Shown here: piece after piece, positions 36,200 through 52,393 of the stretch
How positions within the stretch are numbered: the first letter of the stretch is position 1
Layout: the number at the start of each line of letters is the position of its first letter
Origin: an uncultured bacterium
Lineage (GTDB): Bacteria > Patescibacteriota > Andersenbacteria > UBA10190 > CAIZMI01
Assembly: GCA_903934015.1 (NCBI GenBank)
Contig: CAIZMI010000003.1
Span: 1-61,438, forward strand
Reading direction: 5' to 3'
Length of the DNA: 61,438 nucleotides
The notes under the pieces: model-generated
Seen by the model: the letters and a program-made list of their open reading frames with translations, nothing else
Databases searched by the model: none
Told to the model about the DNA's origin: nothing
Made by a program: the position numbers and the translations under genes

Positions 36200-37159
36200 A
36201 TGGACACAAAACAAAAATCCGCTCTTCCCCATCTGGATAAATATATTTTGCATTTAATAACGCATAACTATTCAAAAGAAACAATTTACAATTACGAAAG
36301 AGATTTACTTATGTTGGAAAATTTTTTGAAAAATGATTTACAAATCCCCTTCCAAAAATTTGATAAGCAGGCACTGGAATTGTATAAAGCCGAGTTAGTG
36401 TCGATTGATCGCAAAACGGCAAACGGTGTTAATGCGGGGACCTCTACCCTATCGTCTCGTTCTATTAATCGAGCGCTTTCCGCATTTCGTTCATATTTGT
36501 CTTTTTTAATTGCAAATGATATTTCCTGTCCTATTCCGCGCGAGGCGGTCACTTTAATTAGGATGGAAAGACGTCACGCGCGCGTGGCGGAGTTGGAGGA
36601 ACTGATTCGCTTGATTGAGGCACCGACAACAATGGAAAAAAATAAGGAGGTGGCGATAAGAAATCGCGCGATACTGGAAACACTCTTTGCGACAGGGATG
36701 AGAATTTCAGAACTTGTGTCGTTGAATTGCGACCAGTTGGATGGAAAAGGAAAAATATTTGTAAAAGGAAAAGGAAAAAAAGAGCGTTTTGTTTATATGA
36801 CGCCCCGAGCCACGGAATATGTTAATCGATATGTATCTTTACATAAAGAAAAAAAAGGCGCGCTGTTTACCCCACTTCGTGGCAGAAACGCAAAATCACA
36901 AAAAGCAAGAATTTCTACAAATTATCTTCAAGATAAAATTAAAAAATATCGCGAGGCGCTTGGAATTGTCGTGCCAACATCAGCCCATTCCCTAAGACAC
37001 GGGTTTGCCACCTATCTTGCCGAGTCGGGTGCCAACCCCGCGGCAATTCAAATTTTACTCGGTCACGAATCTCTTGAGACTACAACGAGATATGTGCATC
37101 CCTCCGACAAGTTTGCCGAAACGACGCATAAAAAATTTCATCCGTTGCAAAACGCATAA
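36200..37159 (+). CDS. XerC/XerD-like tyrosine recombinase
   Basis: N-terminal YSKETIYNY...SINRALSAFRSY; catalytic GMRISEL, KGKGKKER, HSLRH, LGH, TTRY. Confidence 0.95.
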   Translation: MDTKQKSALPHLDKYILHLITHNYSKETIYNYERDLLMLENFLKNDLQIPFQKFDKQALELYKAELVSIDRKTANGVNAGTSTLSSRSINRALSAFRSYLSFLIANDISCPIPREAVTLIRMERRHARVAELEELIRLIEAPTTMEKNKEVAIRNRAILETLFATGMRISELVSLNCDQLDGKGKIFVKGKGKKERFVYMTPRATEYVNRYVSLHKEKKGALFTPLRGRNAKSQKARISTNYLQDKIKKYREALGIVVPTSAHSLRHGFATYLAESGANPAAIQILLGHESLETTTRYVHPSDKFAETTHKKFHPLQNA

Positions 37160-41923: not shown

Positions 41924-42063
41924 AAATTTTCAATGTTCAATTGCCAATTTTCAAATAATTTCCAATACTCAATTTTCAAACAACGACGTAGTTATTGAAC
42001 ATTAAAAATTGAAAATTATTTGAAAATTGCATCCGCCAGCTGGCGGATTGATAATTGAAAATT
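41924..42063. repeat. AT-rich heptamer (AATTTTC/GAAAATT) palindromic element, copy 1, carrying a micro-palindrome insert
   Basis: Aligns with the reverse complement of 52412-52537 except for ATCCGCCAGCTGGCGGAT at 42031-42048. Confidence 0.85.
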
Positions 42064-42084
42064 ATTAGCATTAATTAATACGTC

Positions 42085-45902: not shown

Positions 45903-46007
45903 ACATCACAAAAAAACGTATAACATTAAACAGTTTTGTCTGATGTTTATTAGATTCTTTTACTGTGCTTTAAACATCAATATTGATTTTAATCCTGGCA
46001 ACTTTTA

Positions 46008-47045
46008 TTAATTATGCTCTTTTCTGATTGATAGATAGATGTCTAAAAGCGCAAAAAGAAGACTAACCACTAATGGTCCAAGGACAAAGCCGAGTGGTCC
46101 AAAAAAACCAATTCCGCCCAATATGGAGAGCAAAATAATAAACGGATGAATATTGACGCCTTTTTCAATAAATTTTGGACCTAAAAAATTATCGATTAAC
46201 CCAACCGCCAATATTGCCCAAAAAAGTAACCCAACCGATGCCCATAATTGCCCCGTTAAGAAGAGAAACAATATTGCCGGCACTAAAACCATCGCGGTTC
46301 CGACTCCCGGAATGAGGGCGGATACCGCTGCTGTGCTACCCCATAGCGTTGGGTTTGGTATGCCAAAAATTGCAAAGCCAATTGAGGTTAAAATACCTTG
46401 AATCACGGCTACGACAAGTGTTCCACGCACTACCGAATTTACTGCTTGAATCAACTTTTTTGCGATTGTTTCGTCGTGTGCGTCATGAAGTGGGCTGATT
46501 GAAATTATTGCGCTCTTAAGTTTTTGTCCGTCTTTGAATGAATAATAAAGCGCTACAAGGAAAATAAATGAACTTAGAAGCAAATTTGCGATATTTGAAA
46601 ACACCGGACCCAGGTGTTGCAGTATCCAAGTTAATCCTTGTTTTAAATATTGGTTAAAATCGATATTAAGATCAATGCTAAAAGAAAAGTAATTCTTAAC
46701 AACATCAATAGTTTTCTCGGCGATAGTTGAAAGAATGGTGGTATTATTTCCTGTAACAAGGGTGGAATAAAGTCCTGATGCTTCATAGACGATATTGATT
46801 CCCACAAAAATAAGTGGTGCCACCGCTATTACCAACACGAATAAAGTTGTAATAAATGCCGCTATTCCCGCCTTATTGCGTGTGGTTCTTAGTATTGCTC
46901 GATGTACGGGAGCAAAGACAATTGCAAAAATAATCGCCAAAATTACAGCGGGGAAAAAAGGCTTAAAAATAAAGAAACTAATCGCCGTGGCAATTACAAC
47001 AAGTGCCAGTAGAAAATAGAGTTCAGATTTTTTATGCGTAGTCAT
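46008..47045 (-). CDS. AI-2E family transporter
   Basis: Multi-TM; KDG, VAVIQG, IPGVG, DNFLGP, GFVLGP. Confidence 0.92.
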   Translation of the reverse strand: MTTHKKSELYFLLALVVIATAISFFIFKPFFPAVILAIIFAIVFAPVHRAILRTTRNKAGIAAFITTLFVLVIAVAPLIFVGINIVYEASGLYSTLVTGNNTTILSTIAEKTIDVVKNYFSFSIDLNIDFNQYLKQGLTWILQHLGPVFSNIANLLLSSFIFLVALYYSFKDGQKLKSAIISISPLHDAHDETIAKKLIQAVNSVVRGTLVVAVIQGILTSIGFAIFGIPNPTLWGSTAAVSALIPGVGTAMVLVPAILFLFLTGQLWASVGLLFWAILAVGLIDNFLGPKFIEKGVNIHPFIILLSILGGIGFFGPLGFVLGPLVVSLLFALLDIYLSIRKEHN

Positions 47046-47121
47046 GTGATGTAATCTATTAGTATTTTATAGTACTTTTTAATCAAAGACAATAAGCTGA
47101 GTTGTTTTAGAAAAGCACTAA

Positions 47122-48378
47122 TCAATTATTATTAATTATTGCGCGTGCCAATATTTTTTGTTTTGCTACTAAACCAAGTGCTGGTTTTACATTTTGCTCA
47201 AATCTTTGTCTTACAACATCATCAGGAATACCTCTTTTAGTCGTGTCGCGTACCAATTTGCGTCCTAAAATAGTCGCTTCTGACGCATCCATATACCACT
47301 TAAATGGTGTGTTAATTTGCGAGAGTAAATTAAGCGCATAAACCCCGGTAATAATAATTCTTCGCTTTACCCTAACTGGTTCTTGACCAACGCGACGACT
47401 CGTTTTCATGTCATAAACAGGCGCCATAATCTCCTCACCTTCTTGTGCTTTCAGGAGAGCCTCTAAATCAGATAAAATCCTAGCCTGATCTAACGCTTTT
47501 GGCACACTAAAATTCACTTCCCCATCTTCTCTTTGTTGTAATTCTGCACCACGATAATAGCAATCGAGACTTAAATGGGTGGTTGCGTCTTCTGCAAAAT
47601 TTAACTGATCAACCATTTTATCCTTTCCTGAACCGGTTGGGCCGGCAATTATAATAAAACAACGCTGAGTGGGATTGTTCAACTCCCATGCGATAATTTC
47701 ATTTGATAATTCCGCAACCGCATTGTCTATGGATTGATAGTGTTCGGTTGGTTTACCCCCTATTCGTTCTGGATTTAATCCAACAAATTCGTTTTGTGAA
47801 TATATTCCTATTCCTCTTTGCATATTATTTGAGTCGCTACTCTTAGCACAAAGAGTAATGTGTGGTGGTGGGGCTTCGAGATTTGTACCAAGAAGAGTGT
47901 TTAGTTTTTTATAAAACTGATTCATTCCAGGTAAAATAACCATTTGTATACAAGACACTCTTTCCTCTCCAACTGTCGTCTCCGATCCTTCTGGATCTGC
48001 GACATTTTCATATTTTTTTGAAACAAAATATCGGTCTTGATCAAAAACAAAATGCCAGTCAGTGCTATCAACAAGAAAGCGAATTTCGGAAAACATTTTT
48101 TGTCTTTCCTTGTTTGATAAGCTTTCCAGTGTTTTCCTTATTTCTCCCCCATTTTTCAGCCCCAAAACAGTGATATGGAATTCGTTTTTTAACTCAAGTT
48201 CATTTGCTTTAGAAAAATCATTAATGAAATCTAAATCAACCGCATCATTATCAATTTTAAGGATTAAACTAAAAGCATTTTCATCAAAAAGTATTTGTTC
48301 CGGAATCTTATAATCTTCTTGGTCAGTTGAATCTGATTCCTGTTGAAGATAATTGTTCGGCGAATATTCAGTGGTCAT
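47122..48378 (-). CDS. 2H phosphoesterase fused to uridine-kinase-like P-loop domain
   Basis: Two HxT motifs (FHITV, PHITL); AGPTGSGK, LSLDCYY, NFSVPKALD, RKLVRD..RG; start set at ATG 48378. Confidence 0.75.
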   Translation of the reverse strand: MTTEYSPNNYLQQESDSTDQEDYKIPEQILFDENAFSLILKIDNDAVDLDFINDFSKANELELKNEFHITVLGLKNGGEIRKTLESLSNKERQKMFSEIRFLVDSTDWHFVFDQDRYFVSKKYENVADPEGSETTVGEERVSCIQMVILPGMNQFYKKLNTLLGTNLEAPPPHITLCAKSSDSNNMQRGIGIYSQNEFVGLNPERIGGKPTEHYQSIDNAVAELSNEIIAWELNNPTQRCFIIIAGPTGSGKDKMVDQLNFAEDATTHLSLDCYYRGAELQQREDGEVNFSVPKALDQARILSDLEALLKAQEGEEIMAPVYDMKTSRRVGQEPVRVKRRIIITGVYALNLLSQINTPFKWYMDASEATILGRKLVRDTTKRGIPDDVVRQRFEQNVKPALGLVAKQKILARAIINNN

Positions 48379-48465
48379 GTGTAATAGTTTATTCTGCCTA
48401 TCAGCAGTCGGCAACAATATAAATACTGGGAGTACAAATTTTCATAAAATAATTAGAGTGATGAT

Positions 48466-48758
48466 CCCACCAAGAATCGGCCTCAAAATATGCAATTTAA
48501 ATTGCATATTTCTGGCCACCGAAAAGCGGTTTCGCATCGGCGAAACAACGCTTTTCGTTCGATTCTTGATACGAGCCAATAAATTGGCTCGCTGTGGGTG
48601 CTATTTAAATATATCAAACCCGTAAAGCGAAGTTTGGTTGCTCCGAGACTCCGCGTCATTGGACGCGCAAGTCTCGGAGTTCTTCGATTCTTGTGCAAAA
48701 CGACTCAACATCCCGTTGAGTCGTTTTGTGTACATTATGTAGTTTCGCAAAGCGAAAC
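48466..48758. repeat. tRNA T-arm-derived fragments with nested palindromes downstream of tRNA-Lys
   Basis: CCCACCAAGAATCG (48466-79) duplicates the tRNA 3' segment; inverted GTTCGATTCTTG near 48557; at least six hairpins. Confidence 0.7.
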
Positions 48759-48768
48759 AAATCTCGAG

Positions 48769-48841
48769 TGCGCCCACCAAGAATCGAACTTGGAACCGTT
48801 GGCTTAAAAGGCCACTGCTCTACCAATTGAGCTATAGGCGC
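48769..48841 (-). tRNA. tRNA-Lys(UUU)
   Basis: GCGCCTA-TAGCTCAATTGGTAGAGC-A-GTGGC-CTTTTAA-GCCAA-CGGTT-CCAAG-TTCGATT-CTTGG-TGGGCGC-A; 73 nt, CCA not encoded. Confidence 0.96.
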
Positions 48842-48867
48842 ATGCTTGGTAATTATTATACTACTTG

Positions 48868-49028
48868 GAATCGCCCGCTATGTCAGCGGGCGCCCGCCGC
48901 GCTGGCGGGCGAACTTGGAACCCCAGAAGTAGAATTGCTGAAGCAATACACTTCTGGGCAGGCGTTGGCTTAAAAGGTTTGCCCGCTGTGTTAGCGGGCC
49001 ACTGCTCTACCAATTGAGCTATAGGCGC
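48868..49028 (-). pseudogene. Second tRNA-Lys copy interrupted by four palindromic insertions, 3' acceptor strand missing
   Basis: Removing the inserts restores sequence identical to 48781-48841. Confidence 0.9.
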
Positions 49029-49106
49029 GAACCTATTGAGATACTACAAAATATTTGTAAATCTCACTCCGTATTTAACACCAGATTATCGAAATTGGCA
49101 ATAAAA

Positions 49107-50129
49107 CTACCGATATCTTCCAACTATTGGTCCTGTTCGCGTACTTTTAGGCAGTGAATCAGGAAGTGTTTCAAGTAGTATTTTTTCTACGTCATCAAGT
49201 TGCAGGCTGGTCGGCGGAACACTATCGGATGCCGCTGCGCCACCATTTTGCAAGGTATTGGCAGCAGTATCGTAATACCACTCTTTAACAGCGTCGAGAC
49301 GACCGGTTTTTTCCAATTCCTGCTCAGTTGCTTCTAGTTCAATCCCCTTTTTAAGTGCTTCATCTTCACGAATTCGACGAATTGTAGCCCGAAAATCAAC
49401 GCGTGGCTTACGATCCTTGGTAATAACATTGATGTGGCCTGTCGAACGACGAACAACAACAATATCTGCTCTCACATCCTCAACAGCTCGCAAAAAACCT
49501 GCCATTGTAACGGAATCAGTTTCAATCATCACAACGTTTAAATCCTCACTGCCGGCACACATTTTCTTCACTGTCGCTTTCCCGGTTTTTTTCAATTCTT
49601 CGAATTCCATTGGCATCAAAACAGTACGCGTGTATTGCTCAAAATAATGTGCCTGAAACAATCGCTTAACGATATCAATTACGTAATCTGGGTGACCTGG
49701 ATAAGCTTTTACGAGATTCAATATCAAGGCAGGCAAACCAAACATACGATCGATAACATCTTTTGAAACAATTCCTCGACCCTCTAGGTCATCACGCTTG
49801 ACAAATGTTAGGAGTTTCTTCAGTGCTGGCATCTCGTCAATCTTCAAATATTTTGCAACAAGCGTAGAAGCGCAATCTGTTTTAACCGCGTCATGATTAT
49901 CATGGTGATGATGATCAAACTTCCCTTCACCCATATCAACTAGCAAAAAACCTTCTTTTTCCATCTCATCCGCCGTTTTCCCTTCCGGTTCCCTATCCCA
50001 TAATTCTATTTTTGCATCTTTTATGCCCGGAAAAAATTCTTCGCCAAATTCCTGCAACAAAAAAACCGCGCAAATATTGTCGGTGTGTAATCTTCGATAA
50101 ATGGCGATTGTGTGTATTGGTGTTGGCAT
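49107..50129 (-). CDS. DHH/MYG1-like metal-dependent phosphoesterase or nuclease
   Basis: HTD, LVDMGEGKFDHH, CASTLV, DD motifs. Confidence 0.7.
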   Translation of the reverse strand: MPTPIHTIAIYRRLHTDNICAVFLLQEFGEEFFPGIKDAKIELWDREPEGKTADEMEKEGFLLVDMGEGKFDHHHHDNHDAVKTDCASTLVAKYLKIDEMPALKKLLTFVKRDDLEGRGIVSKDVIDRMFGLPALILNLVKAYPGHPDYVIDIVKRLFQAHYFEQYTRTVLMPMEFEELKKTGKATVKKMCAGSEDLNVVMIETDSVTMAGFLRAVEDVRADIVVVRRSTGHINVITKDRKPRVDFRATIRRIREDEALKKGIELEATEQELEKTGRLDAVKEWYYDTAANTLQNGGAAASDSVPPTSLQLDDVEKILLETLPDSLPKSTRTGPIVGRYR

Positions 50130-50186
50130 GGACTAATAATAAGCTTCAATTGGAAATAATAGAAATCGATCACAATAAAAATTGTG

Positions 50187-50300
50187 GTCGTTGCGAGCCA
50201 TCGACAATTCGTGAGAATTGGCGAGGCGCGGCAACCCCCTCAGTATTCAGATACTGGAGATTGCTTCGCCTCCGCCCACTGGCGGATGGCTCGCAATGAC
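50187..50300. repeat. 114-bp palindromic element (GTCATTGCGAG...CTCGCAATGAC type)
   Basis: 16-bp terminal inverted repeat with one mismatch; internal GCAACC...GATTGC; contains TCCGCCCACTGGCGGA at 50271-86. Confidence 0.8.
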
Positions 50301-50313
50301 GTACTTTTTTCGC

Positions 50314-50368
50314 AAAAAAAATCGCCCGAGAAGTGATCGAGTGGAACATCCACTGACACTTCTCGGGC
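50314..50368 (-). terminator. Intrinsic terminator of the GC-rich gene
   Basis: GCCCGAGAAGTG...CACTTCTCGGGC stem followed on the minus strand by a T-run. Confidence 0.75.
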
Positions 50369-50399
50369 TAGGTTAAAGAACGGGGTAAAGCGCTGCGGC

Positions 50400-51413
50400 C
50401 TAGCGCTGGCTTTCGGGGAGCCAGTGCTTGTAATTCTGCTGGATGAGATCCAGCAGTTCCGATTCGCGGATCCGCGTCGGAGCCACGGCCCGACTCGCCG
50501 AGCCGTTGTGGATCTGCGGACTCGACGGTCGCTGGTCCAGGAACCACAAATTCGGTTCTCGAGCCACCAAAGCTCCCTGGAGCTTTTCGAAGCTTTGCGG
50601 CCCGTTGCACTGGATCGTCACGTTTCCCTTGCGATTACGGATCACAAGGACTCCAACGCGACGATTCTGTTTCCAGTAGGCACGCGCAACTTCGACATCG
50701 TCCGTGACGATCAGGTGACACGCCATCGTCTTGCCAGACTCGACGACGCCAACGAAGAATATTCGATTTGGCCGAATTTTTCCTGCCTTCTCGAACACCG
50801 CCTGCCGGTGTCTTTTGACTTTCTTGAACTGGTCGTCGAGAACATCGATGAGCTCTTCATCACTGACACCCGCCAGCTCGAGCATCCGCTCGAAGCTAGT
50901 CATGGAAAACGGGTTTTCCATGGCCTCGACTTGATTCAGCGCCTTGGCGCAGGCGTCGAAATACGTTTCGACACACTGCATGAGCAAGGTGACGACCCAG
51001 ATTCGATACTCGCGCGGCGGCAGATTCCGCGGGACCTCGTACAACCCACGGATGAGATCAACGATACTGCGGTTACCATCTTTCAGGCAACCGGTTCGAT
51101 TGTTCACTTCCAGCAGGTGAACAAGGAGTTCGATGCCGGGCAGGTTTTCATTTGTGAGACCTGCGTCCCGGGCCACGCGCTCCGTCGCGCTACCGAGATC
51201 CTCGATGCGGTTGTACGGTGACCGAACGTCGACGTCAATAGCGTCCTTCGGGACGCCATCCTCGTCTTCGAAGCAGATCCGATAGTCATCGGACGAAACT
51301 TCCGGGCCGAACTTGACGTAGATTGCGCACCACAGGGCGCACAACTTGTCCCACGTCAAGGTTTTCGGAACTAGAAACGAAACAACTGTGCTAACGGCGG
51401 TGGCTGCGGACAT
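50400..51413 (-). CDS. GC-rich divergent homologue of the adjacent DHH/MYG1-like protein, catalytic motifs lost
   Basis: Collinear blocks with 49107-50129; GAGGA Shine-Dalgarno; own promoter and terminator. Confidence 0.7.
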   Translation of the reverse strand: MSAATAVSTVVSFLVPKTLTWDKLCALWCAIYVKFGPEVSSDDYRICFEDEDGVPKDAIDVDVRSPYNRIEDLGSATERVARDAGLTNENLPGIELLVHLLEVNNRTGCLKDGNRSIVDLIRGLYEVPRNLPPREYRIWVVTLLMQCVETYFDACAKALNQVEAMENPFSMTSFERMLELAGVSDEELIDVLDDQFKKVKRHRQAVFEKAGKIRPNRIFFVGVVESGKTMACHLIVTDDVEVARAYWKQNRRVGVLVIRNRKGNVTIQCNGPQSFEKLQGALVAREPNLWFLDQRPSSPQIHNGSASRAVAPTRIRESELLDLIQQNYKHWLPESQR

Positions 51414-51615
51414 GGTAAAATCCTCATTTCTACCCCCTTAAAAGGGGGTTTCTGTTGGTAAGGAACAAAAGCGAGACAAAAACGTCGCGCTCTTTCCGGG
51501 TAATCCTGCCAGTGTGGTAGAATCGCCTGGAAAGGGCTTTGGGCTTCCCACTTCGCCTATTGGCTACGCGGGACAAGCTATAAAATGGCTACAAAAAGAT
51601 CAAAATCAAGAGATA

Positions 51616-51644
51616 AGTATACTCCCGTTGACGGATTTTGTCAA
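51616..51644 (-). promoter_or_regulatory. Near-consensus sigma70 promoter of the GC-rich gene
   Basis: Minus strand TTGACA, 17 nt, TATACT. Confidence 0.75.
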
Positions 51645-51698
51645 TGGTGCCGGTTTGTGGGATAATTAACACATATAAGGGTGTTTGTGACGCCGCGA

Positions 51699-51722
51699 GG
51701 GCGATTCATGAATCGCCCCTAC
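51699..51722 (-). repeat. GTAG-type REP palindrome, copy 2
   Basis: Minus strand GTAG-GGGCGATTCATGAATCGCCC; compensatory change relative to 10590-10613. Confidence 0.75.
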
Positions 51723-51745
51723 ACGACCAATATTAATAAACCAAC

Positions 51746-52393
51746 ATGCAACAAAAAACTAAGCGCTTCGCTTTATTCACCACTATCTTGTCGGCAATTA
51801 TTGTCGCGGTTTTTTGTCTGGCTTACCTTACTGCCAACGCGTCTAATCGCTATAATTTTTCCGGACAAGGAATCGTGAGTGAAAATAATTTAAACGAAAA
51901 ATATATTCGTATCTCGTTTAAACAAATTTCCAAGCAAGCTGTAAGTTTGGCCGGCACGGAACCGGTTACAATCCGTGTGAATCAGGCGAAGGTATATATG
52001 CCAAATGCTGCGGGTGTATTATTAAAGTTCAATCAAGACAAAATTGGGGTCGGCACACTGGTTACAGTTTACGGTGCCGTTAAGTCGGACAACACTTTTT
52101 CCGCCAGCAAAGTGACAATTGTCCCGCGTAAATTTAAAATTCGTGGCAAATTAATTGCCATGCGAAAAGACTCCCATGTTTTTACCGTTGATGTTTCCGC
52201 AAGCACCTATCAACCGACAAAATATGCTGGCAAATCTCTCGAAATTTTATATACGGATAAAACGACAGTGACCCAATCGGGTGGAAAAAAAGATATCGCA
52301 AAAGTTGAGCCTTTGAATCAGCGTGTGATTATTAATGGAAATATTGTGGGAGACGATGTGTTTGAGGCAGTTCAACTCAATGATCCACTGTGA
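51746..52393 (+). CDS. Secreted protein with two tandem OB-fold-like (DUF5666-like) repeats
   Basis: Signal/TM segment; repeated F...G.......V.V.G......F.A pattern. Confidence 0.6.
   Translation: MQQKTKRFALFTTILSAIIVAVFCLAYLTANASNRYNFSGQGIVSENNLNEKYIRISFKQISKQAVSLAGTEPVTIRVNQAKVYMPNAAGVLLKFNQDKIGVGTLVTVYGAVKSDNTFSASKVTIVPRKFKIRGKLIAMRKDSHVFTVDVSASTYQPTKYAGKSLEILYTDKTTVTQSGGKKDIAKVEPLNQRVIINGNIVGDDVFEAVQLNDPL

Follow-up and report, generated by a model that had tools for sequence, protein, structure and literature searches.

An interrupted tRNA-Lys copy in an Andersenbacteria genome as the probable remnant of a T-loop-lodging selfish cassette

Introduction

The only tRNA gene in a 61,438-nt stretch of DNA from an uncultured bacterium of the Andersenbacteria (Patescibacteriota; contig CAIZMI010000003.1 of assembly GCA_903934015.1; hereafter the window) is tRNA-Lys(UUU), and directly upstream of it lies a partial duplicate of the same gene that is broken up by short hairpin-forming inserts. 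The question raised by this locus is what interrupted the copy. A sequence-only reading had proposed ultra-small mobile palindromes, inserted in trans and accumulating faster than point mutations. By comparison with related genomes we argue instead that the locus is probably the decayed, nuclease-less unit of a small selfish cassette which lodges in the T-loop of tRNA genes, and which in its complete form carries a double hairpin, a minimal GIY-YIG nuclease gene and a replacement tRNA.

The genome under study (G000) comprises 1.34 Mb in 64 contigs with a GC content of 42%, the window being contig C3. Forty genomes of the same order were searched as relatives (41 including G000), among them a sister species (G001) and the related genomes G014 and G032; contigs are given C-numbers, and loci fetched from relatives L-numbers.

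Results

A double hairpin splits the T-loop of a dead tRNA-Lys copy

Alignment to the intact gene showed the partial copy to correspond to tRNA-Lys(UUU) positions 1–57 in blocks of 30, 14 and 13 nt, on the same strand and separated by 26 nt from the intact gene, the copy being on its upstream side in tRNA orientation. The 3' strands of the T-stem and of the acceptor stem are absent from the copy. The locus is laid out as follows:

48768..48841, minus strand: intact tRNA-Lys(UUU), the working copy (ARAGORN; Rfam, 70.5 bits; 74/74 nt identical to the gene of the sister species)
48842..48867, minus strand: 26-nt spacer with TAGTATAAT (read from the sequence)
48868..48873, minus strand: CG and the first 4 nt (ATTC) of the 3' half of the T-loop, where similarity to the tRNA stops (alignment)
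48874..48909, minus strand: double hairpin, composed of hairpin B (48874–48890), CG and hairpin A (48893–48909), splitting the T-loop between positions 57 and 58 (conserved across genomes)
48910..48922, minus strand: tRNA-Lys positions 45–57 of the partial copy (13-nt exact match)
48923..48963, minus strand: 41-nt hairpin-forming insert in the variable loop between positions 44 and 45, unique to this locus (alignment and fold)
48964..48977, minus strand: tRNA-Lys positions 31–44 of the partial copy (exact match)
48978..48998, minus strand: 21-nt insert at the border of anticodon stem and loop, being a solo hairpin (48982–48998) with the stem of hairpin B plus 4 nt (alignment)
48999..49028, minus strand: tRNA-Lys positions 1–30 of the partial copy, with the 5' acceptor strand, D-arm and beginning of the anticodon stem (32-nt exact match, 2 nt of which are ambiguous)

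The two T-loop palindromes are CCCGCTATGTCAGCGGG and CCCGCCGCGCTGGCGGG, each followed by CG, and the 21-nt insert consists of TTTG plus CCCGCTGTGTTAGCGGG. The insertion point of the latter may be placed at 30/31, 31/32 or 32/33, which are indistinguishable because CC is repeated at both ends. The sequence-only reading was right about the basic facts: all four inserts lie where it had placed them, each genuinely inserted into a dead copy; the CG repeat holds up; and the remaining tRNA bases are unmutated, with 0 mismatches over positions 1–57. In the same (tRNA) orientation the solo hairpin is identical to hairpin B at 15 of 17 nt, and the stem that they share, CCCGCT/AGCGGG, occurs only three times in the genome. 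No relative of the 41-nt insert was found in the 41 genomes.

The partial copy folds strongly as single-stranded DNA (ssDNA; z = -4.9 against 200 shuffles) and as RNA (z = -5.0). Promoter-like sites at the locus were no commoner than in shuffles (2 versus 1.3 expected), including one whose first hexamer falls inside the loop of the hairpin adjoining the spacer and which is likewise not above shuffle frequency; no terminator-like sites were found at the locus. A search of Rfam over 46000–52000 returned the intact tRNA-Lys(UUU) only.

The double hairpin is a conserved module

The segment 48866–48911 matches a second locus of the same genome, C55:51528–51573, at 43 of 46 nt, and matches to the double hairpin (hereafter doublet) were found in 11 of the 41 genomes (G000 and 10 of the 40 relatives). 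Nineteen doublet loci of a few hundred nt each were fetched from the relatives, 13 of them with a tRNA called by ARAGORN, and 17 of 22 loci were aligned; those omitted were L024 (truncated), L028 (22 extra nt between the hairpins) and L029, L030 and L031 (flanks off pattern or masked). Across genera the order T(T/C)CG–hairpin A–CG–hairpin B–CG–A was invariant in all 17 aligned copies and, where intact, the flanks are the two halves of a T-loop, GGTTCG on one side and CGATTCC on the other. The sequence-only reading had treated the two T-loop palindromes as separate 17-bp events; since hairpins A and B keep their order and spacing in 17/17 copies, within a split T-loop, the alignment indicates that they are one conserved doublet copied as a unit and not two independent insertions. 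The CG repeat is equally invariant (17/17), the intact neighbouring tRNA-Lys(UUU) represents the uninterrupted state, and the copies are few, the doublet travelling with a larger cassette (see below).

The doublet stems are CCCGCC/GGCGGG and CCCGCT/AGCGGG. In the 17-sequence alignment 99.5% of stem cells were paired and 5 of 12 pairs had changed on both sides, with loops varying freely; the covariation score was reached by none of 500 shuffles. The stems thus appear to be maintained by compensatory change, although copying of palindromes as DNA hairpins would give such covariation without selection too. Removal of the doublet in silico restored a tRNA across the junction at 0 of 17 loci, so the plugged copies are dead pieces and not intron-bearing genes; the sequence-only reading had leaned the same way, on the grounds that the 3' acceptor strand is missing. 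In other genera (L020–L027) an intact tRNA is closely followed by the plugged T-arm, there as a 3' fragment. When five doublet loci lacking a tRNA were searched against Rfam, the only match was to anti-hemB, below threshold (26.3 bits versus a cut-off of 49.5).

Palindromes of the form CCCGC-N7-GCGGG number 19 in the 1.34-Mb genome (mean 0.63, maximum 2 in 30 dinucleotide shuffles), making this the most frequent of all 32 GC-only 5-mer stems. Such palindromes thus exceed chance, but the family to which the window hairpins belong amounts to only three doublets and three solo hairpins (48982–48998, C48:7121 and C34:7946) and forms no genome-wide swarm. The three doublets split the T-loop of partial copies of tRNA-Lys (window), tRNA-Gly (C55) and tRNA-Ala. 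Further relatives had been claimed within the window at 42033–46 and 50271–86; these proved to be only short CCGCC/GGCGG palindromes of another type. As a side observation, 42000–42070, in the spacer between rplI and an S41-peptidase gene, holds the palindrome TCCGCCAGCTGGCGGA between repeated TTGAAAATT-like words.

Complete cassettes carry a GIY-YIG gene and an intact tRNA

At three loci an intact GIY-YIG reading frame lies between the doublet and an intact tRNA: C55 of G000, C30 of the sister species (L013) and C81 of G032 (L019). A frameshifted GIY-YIG frame occupies the same place in G014 (L028). The order at L013 is tRNA-Lys(CUU) positions 1–57, doublet, CGATTCC, an 85-aa GIY-YIG frame and a complete, identical tRNA-Lys(CUU), whose start is overlapped by the end of the frame; the predicted protein matches the Pfam GIY-YIG family (E = 1.5e-12) over residues 1–66. 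C55 of G000 is built in the same way with tRNA-Gly(CCC), its GIY-YIG frame running from 51511 to 51272, and this build recurs at C81 of G032. The cassettes at C55, L013 and L019 share with the window locus the bases CCA(A/G) beyond the ATTC of 48868–48873, which tRNA-Lys lacks at that place. At the place that corresponds to the window spacer (48842–48867), complete cassettes carry a promoter-like (TATAAT-like) box and the nuclease gene; the window locus, L014, L015, L018, L024 and the tRNA-Ala locus, which falls at the ends of contigs C63 and C5, are gene-less doublet loci with only 26–60 nt in place of the gene.

The cassette nucleases are single-domain proteins of about 80–107 aa, and the nearest solved structures are the UPF0213 proteins 1ywl and 1zg2 (E about 1e-7). 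Among 80 loci of nuclease homologues from several phyla, 59 have a tRNA within 400 nt, and in 57 of these 59 all tRNAs are on the strand of the gene, only two loci also having an opposite-strand tRNA. A tRNA starts just behind the gene on its strand in 29 of the 59, and one lies within 400 nt in front of it in 37, with both in seven. A loose split-T-loop pattern was present upstream of 31 of 76 homologues compared with 7 of 66 and 8 of 67 control windows, which is a rough measure given that the opposite strand scored 32 of 76.

Separately, at C18:1567–1950 of G000 a T-arm followed by a tail ending in CTCCACT stands upstream of another small GIY-YIG gene; this arrangement resembles what we take to be a typical tmRNA 3' end, and ARAGORN called no tmRNA in the genome.

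Turnover of the cassette between sister species

In the sister species an intact tRNA-Gly(CCC) lies beside tRNA-Thr(CGU), the same neighbour as in G000. The first 57 nt of this intact gene are identical to the plugged partial copy at C55 of G000 (57/57), the break in which falls exactly after T-loop position 57; the T-loop of the sister gene continues where G000 has the doublet. The working tRNA-Gly(CCC) of G000, behind the nuclease gene, is identical to the G001 gene at only 60 of 75 aligned columns, and no close match to it was found in G001. Because of this difference (57/57 versus 60/75), the plugged copy is evidently the remnant of the resident gene, and the working copy was evidently imported with the cassette.

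The tRNA-Lys genes differ in occupancy as well. A doublet-plugged copy is present at tRNA-Lys(UUU) in G000 and absent there in G001; a doublet-plugged copy with a nuclease gene is present at tRNA-Lys(CUU) in G001 and absent there in G000. Taken together, these alignments demonstrate turnover of the cassette between the two species. One alignable flanking block of tRNA-Lys(UUU) is about 85% identical between them and, because the window copy has 0 changes in 57 nt and is absent in G001, the comparison marks the copy as young. Youth explains its clean bases better than the earlier suggestion that inserts had outpaced point mutations.

A different module was also noted at the tRNA-Lys genes of both species: a 12-nt copy of the tRNA 5' end and a hairpin module of roughly 105 nt, with an inverted 5'-end copy, stand before them (G000:C34:26337–26461; G001:C31:81343–81461; L013:116–400). 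This module, which differs from the doublet, is placed in each species at the D-arm of one Lys gene or of both.

Partial copies and plugged T-loops across the genome

Exact partial copies of at least 12 nt within 600 nt were found for 22 of the 44 tRNA genes of G000 as compared with 0 of 44 random control windows, and the T-loop is their main breakpoint throughout the genome. In the linear count of ARAGORN, long upstream (5') copies mostly run from position 1 to 54–57, extending from 1 to 71 in the longer tRNA-Ser, and one ends at 34; downstream (3') copies mostly start at 53–57, often with an inverted T-arm copy in between.

In 10 upstream copies of G000 the T-loop is plugged, and the plugs fall into three families. 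The short doublet described above is found with Lys, Gly and Ala. A longer doublet of about 52–54 nt, with the same TTCG–hairpin–CG–hairpin–CG–A grammar, is found with tRNA-Val(CAC), Glu(CUC), Gln(CUG) and Ser(GGA), examples being C15:56093, C15:65850, C17:3861 and C34:23958. In the third family a multi-hairpin module of roughly 110 nt replaces the T-loop in copies of tRNA-Arg(CCG) (three tandem units), Arg(GCG) and Pro(CGG), at C18:20649–21040, C34:34341–34567 and C48:6858–7183. The tRNA-Pro partial copy has also been hit in the D-loop, by a hairpin-forming insert of 81 nt with GTAG at either end, so that the window is not alone in holding a dead copy with several inserts. On the alignments, this copy and the solo hairpin at 48982–48998 show that hairpin-forming inserts do land in the loops of dead tRNA copies.

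Two unusual predictions were also returned by ARAGORN, at C22:41202–41275 and C26:5559–5629: one is a tRNA-Asn whose anticodon is AUU, and the other, for which a two-base anticodon loop was called, is a tRNA of undetermined type.

Support for the assembled sequence

A 215-nt Logan contig identical to the assembly over 48812–49026 was present in three lake-water metagenome runs, and a 422-nt contig from a fourth run (48850–49271) bridged the partial copy into its right flank. All four runs belong to one study, possibly the source of the assembly itself, and so attest consistency and not independent replication. Word depths to the left of, inside and to the right of the partial copy were alike (10.8, 10.3 and 10.7 in run X1), and one contig of depth 4 carried a G>T change at 48907. 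The locus contains a 32-nt exact repeat and the genome was assembled from a metagenome, which is where an assembly artefact could arise; with the interior and the right-flank junction reproduced in contigs of four runs, depths alike across the copy and the same architecture recurring in other genomes, an artefact is so improbable as to be near negligible. The sequence-only reading had allowed for misassembly, against which these contigs speak, and had looked to insert-free alleles for evidence of mobility; no insert-free alleles or joints were seen in the contigs (not reads) of the four runs.

Flanking features of the locus

Further tRNA-Lys-derived and hairpin features lie downstream of the intact gene in tRNA orientation:

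48740..48767, minus strand: conserved 3' trailer hairpin, found behind many tRNA genes of G000 (29–32-nt matches, 93–100% identity)
48557..48568, plus strand: inverted copy of the tRNA-Lys T-arm, positions 53–64 (12-nt exact inverted match)
48480..48557, minus strand: two long hairpins, at about 48480–48517 and 48520–48557, between the 3' fragment and the inverted T-arm (read from the sequence)
48466..48479, minus strand: displaced tRNA-Lys 3' fragment, positions 56–69, with the T-loop CG, the 3' strand of the T-stem and part of the 3' acceptor strand (14-nt exact match)

The displaced fragment lies 290 nt downstream of the intact gene within a 104-nt block that is 85% identical in the sister species. 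The two-hairpin block is also found behind tRNA-Lys(UUU) of the sister species, with a like arrangement behind tRNA-Lys(CUU) on contig C34, and the pattern of inverted T-arm and direct 3' end recurs behind eight other tRNAs of G000. Trailer-hairpin matches follow immediately on tRNA-Leu, Gly, Glu, Ala, Thr and Trp, among others; the trailer consists of CTCGAG, a short spacer and a GTTTCGC...GCGAAAC hairpin, and it accompanies at least 10 different tRNA genes of G000.

On the other side, between the tRNA-Lys locus and dnaJ, 50001–52000 has a GC content of 50% compared with about 40% around it. Its three reading frames, 49107–50129, 50400–51413 and 51746–52393, had no usable match in Pfam, NCBIfam or PHROGs. 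Elsewhere in the genome a separate repeat family has CCCGCATCAAGTGCGGG or a close variant of it at its core and conserved flanks on either side, with six copies (C8:800, C22:2825, C22:7645, C39:14369, C40:350 and C59:4758).

Discussion

A proposed homing-type cassette

A complete unit, read in tRNA orientation, consists of the resident tRNA positions 1–57, TTCG–hairpin–CG–hairpin–CG–ATTC, a promoter-like box, a single-domain GIY-YIG gene for about 80–100 aa and a complete tRNA of the same anticodon, the last of which replaces the broken resident tRNA. This architecture, its breakpoint in the T-loop, its recurrence beside many tRNAs and, at one locus, the imported replacement are all evident from the genomes compared. 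The function that we propose for the cassette from its sequence is of the homing type: the conserved T-loop motif of tRNA genes would be cut by the nuclease, and the break would be mended on a template that bears the cassette, whereby doublet, nuclease gene and replacement tRNA would be installed. The double hairpin in the leftover T-loop may be the end of the cassette or a plug that destroys the target site, and the invariant CG on both sides of each hairpin may reflect a 2-nt staggered cut. A precedent is SegB of phage T4, a GIY-YIG homing endonuclease which, as its abstract describes, has a site that includes an 11-bp T-psi-C stem-loop motif and leaves 2-nt 3' overhangs (PMC2330249); a 2-nt stagger of this kind would be consistent with the CG repeat. 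In the window the nuclease gene would have been lost, with the 26-nt spacer left behind, and two more hairpin-forming inserts would later have entered the leftover copy at its variable loop and its anticodon loop, the latter insert adding a third copy of the hairpin B type.

Several observations weigh against this reading of the locus. The window locus has no GIY-YIG gene, only a 26-nt spacer, and in G000 as a whole the gene accompanies just 1 of the 10 plugged 5' copies (the Gly locus); decay is thus deduced from relatives, and the unit without the gene may be the basic form. Next to each cassette the intact tRNA keeps an unbroken T-loop, and an immunity plug alone fails to explain why it is spared. 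At 80–107 aa the nucleases are single-domain proteins and lack the DNA-binding domain from which Seg-type enzymes derive their specificity. Nuclease homologues occur in 35 of the 41 genomes and doublets in 11, so that their co-occurrence (11/11 versus 24/30) does not discriminate. The right end of the cassette is undefined, no displaced 3' fragment having been seen behind the tRNAs at C55 or L013, and the two extra inserts of the window copy are not accounted for by homing. A single-strand, hairpin-guided mechanism, of the kind known for the Ssn nucleases (see below), would better explain both the preference for loops and the solo hairpins, and is the chief rival.

Alternative explanations

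The insertion of single palindromes, as the sequence-only reading had it, would make each 17-bp hairpin a tiny non-autonomous element pasted by a trans-acting enzyme on folded ssDNA with a 2-nt duplication each time, and the doublet the product of two events at the same CG. TTCG–hairpin–CG–hairpin–CG–A is indeed the outcome expected of two successive insertions with CG duplication; solo hairpins exist at three places; all three inserts of the window copy and the D-loop insert of the tRNA-Pro copy sit in loops of the cloverleaf; and the insert on the anticodon side can be read with CC repeated at each end. Single-domain GIY-YIG nucleases of the Ssn type, from what is given of them in the main text, cut ssDNA beside hairpin repeats (PMC11893778). 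We nevertheless regard this explanation as unlikely, in view of the fixed order and spacing of hairpins A and B in every aligned copy across genera, the three doublets and three solos that are all the family amounts to in 1.34 Mb, the 41-nt insert without a relative and the want of an insert-less allele in the four runs. A related possibility, which we also consider rather doubtful, is that minimal UPF0213-type GIY-YIG proteins drive a mode of DNA movement not described before, in which they recognise tRNA genes in the form of ssDNA cloverleaves, cut in their loops (at the CG of the T-loop and also in the anticodon, variable and D loops) and paste in hairpin modules or spare-tRNA cassettes. 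If that were so, the triply hit window copy would be a direct record of repeated loop-targeted insertion and not mere decay.

Other explanations look beyond hairpin-directed enzymes. Partial tRNA duplicates are the classic scar of islands integrated into tRNA genes by tyrosine or serine recombinases, and a GC-richer block of unannotated frames (50001–52000) does lie just upstream; as attachment (att) sites, however, the copies are highly improbable, given that the genome has a single Phage_integrase-family match at a distance of 12 kb (36596–37108), that the duplicate is a 5' part, 26 nt away from the intact gene and without an intervening island, that half of all G000 tRNAs carry such copies and that hairpin plugs are foreign to att sites. 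It is also very unlikely that the interrupted copy is a functional RNA, either an intron-bearing or split tRNA or a structured leader controlling the downstream tRNA. Its strong fold as RNA, its covarying stems and its position directly upstream of the intact tRNA on the same strand would suit such a role, but perfect palindromes covary automatically if copied as DNA hairpins, the 3' acceptor strand is absent, doublet removal restores no tRNA, Rfam matches only the intact gene and the inserts vary from locus to locus among three plug families. A nuclease-bearing, T-loop-lodging cassette, of which the window retains a decayed unit, is the reading that we favour for the locus.

Comparison with known systems

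Like SegB, whose gene stands free within the tRNA cluster of phage T4, the cassette has a GIY-YIG gene among tRNA genes, a T-psi-C stem-loop as its presumed site, a possible 2-nt staggered cut and presumed co-inheritance with neighbouring tRNA genes (PMC2330249, abstract). As with Seg-type elements, presence or absence at the same site differs between close relatives, tRNA-Gly(CCC) being filled in G000 and intact in G001 and the occupancy of the tRNA-Lys genes being swapped. It differs in that SegB is a phage protein, whereas the cassette frames encode predicted single-domain proteins of 80–107 aa, and in that the SegB abstract mentions no hairpin doublet, partial tRNA copies or replacement of a resident gene (PMC2330249).

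The Ssn proteins (clade cd10448) are likewise minimal GIY-YIG proteins, with genes flanked by short hairpin-forming repeats (NTS/SRM); the main text reports cleavage of ssDNA beside the hairpin as demonstrated, and its authors note a resemblance to insertion sequences (PMC11893778). Ssn repeats, however, occur in hundreds of copies and without a tie to tRNAs, a term with 0 occurrences in the main text (PMC11893778), whereas the cassette hairpins are few, paired and always inside a T-loop, and stand upstream of the gene only, with the tRNA downstream. The cassette nuclease has UPF0213 proteins as its nearest solved relatives.

The GC42 clusters of yeast mitochondria are mobile GC-rich hairpins, each about 40 nt long, that duplicate a 2-nt target (AG), vary mostly in their loops and transpose by a mechanism described as unknown (PMC4478555). 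They differ from the doublet in being present in many copies in AT-rich organelle spacers, and the passages on them mention no nuclease gene or T-loop target (PMC4478555).

The cassette itself falls among known kinds of element, namely free-standing homing endonuclease cassettes and small palindromic inserts, and the window locus, decayed as it is, is an unusually informative example. In the mitochondria of Allomyces a mobile endonuclease frame is said to enter a protein gene, bringing a replacement part and leaving a dead fragment of the resident behind; small double-hairpin elements are reportedly mobile there as well, and a link between endonuclease and hairpins is likewise reported. The difference is that these are mitochondrial and target protein genes.

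REP sequences are short, often paired GC-rich palindromes with a dedicated hairpin-acting enzyme, RAYT, and are not inserted in tRNA loops. The single strong match to RAYT (Y1 transposase) in G000, at C34:51782–52144, is bracketed by two copies of the 18-nt hairpin CCCGCGGCAAGCCGCGGG (C34:51698–52242). RAYT was considered as the inserting enzyme and rejected, the sole gene being flanked by this different hairpin and not by the doublet stems; a GIY-YIG enzyme, one of the candidates named in the sequence-only reading, is physically linked to the hairpins of the window locus elsewhere in G000.

No published bacterial description was found, in full-text literature mostly outside subscription journals and with supplements excluded, of T-loop-splitting double hairpins together with a minimal GIY-YIG gene and a replacement tRNA.

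Implications

The T-loop of tRNA is the most conserved sequence in biology. If the proposed reading is correct, half of the tRNA genes in a 1.3-Mb genome would have been remodelled by one kind of selfish cassette landing in this loop. Such a cassette would pay its way with a replacement tRNA and would offer bacteria with small genomes a route by which tRNA genes are exchanged horizontally. The reading would also suggest a biological role for the widespread tiny GIY-YIG proteins of unknown function, and would explain the GC-rich hairpins and tRNA fragments that surround the tRNA genes of these genomes, which may confuse annotation. The C55 nuclease together with the T-arm or the doublet would constitute a testable pair of enzyme and site. 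To this the window locus would add, if our reading holds, that leftover copies keep attracting hairpin inserts in their loops.

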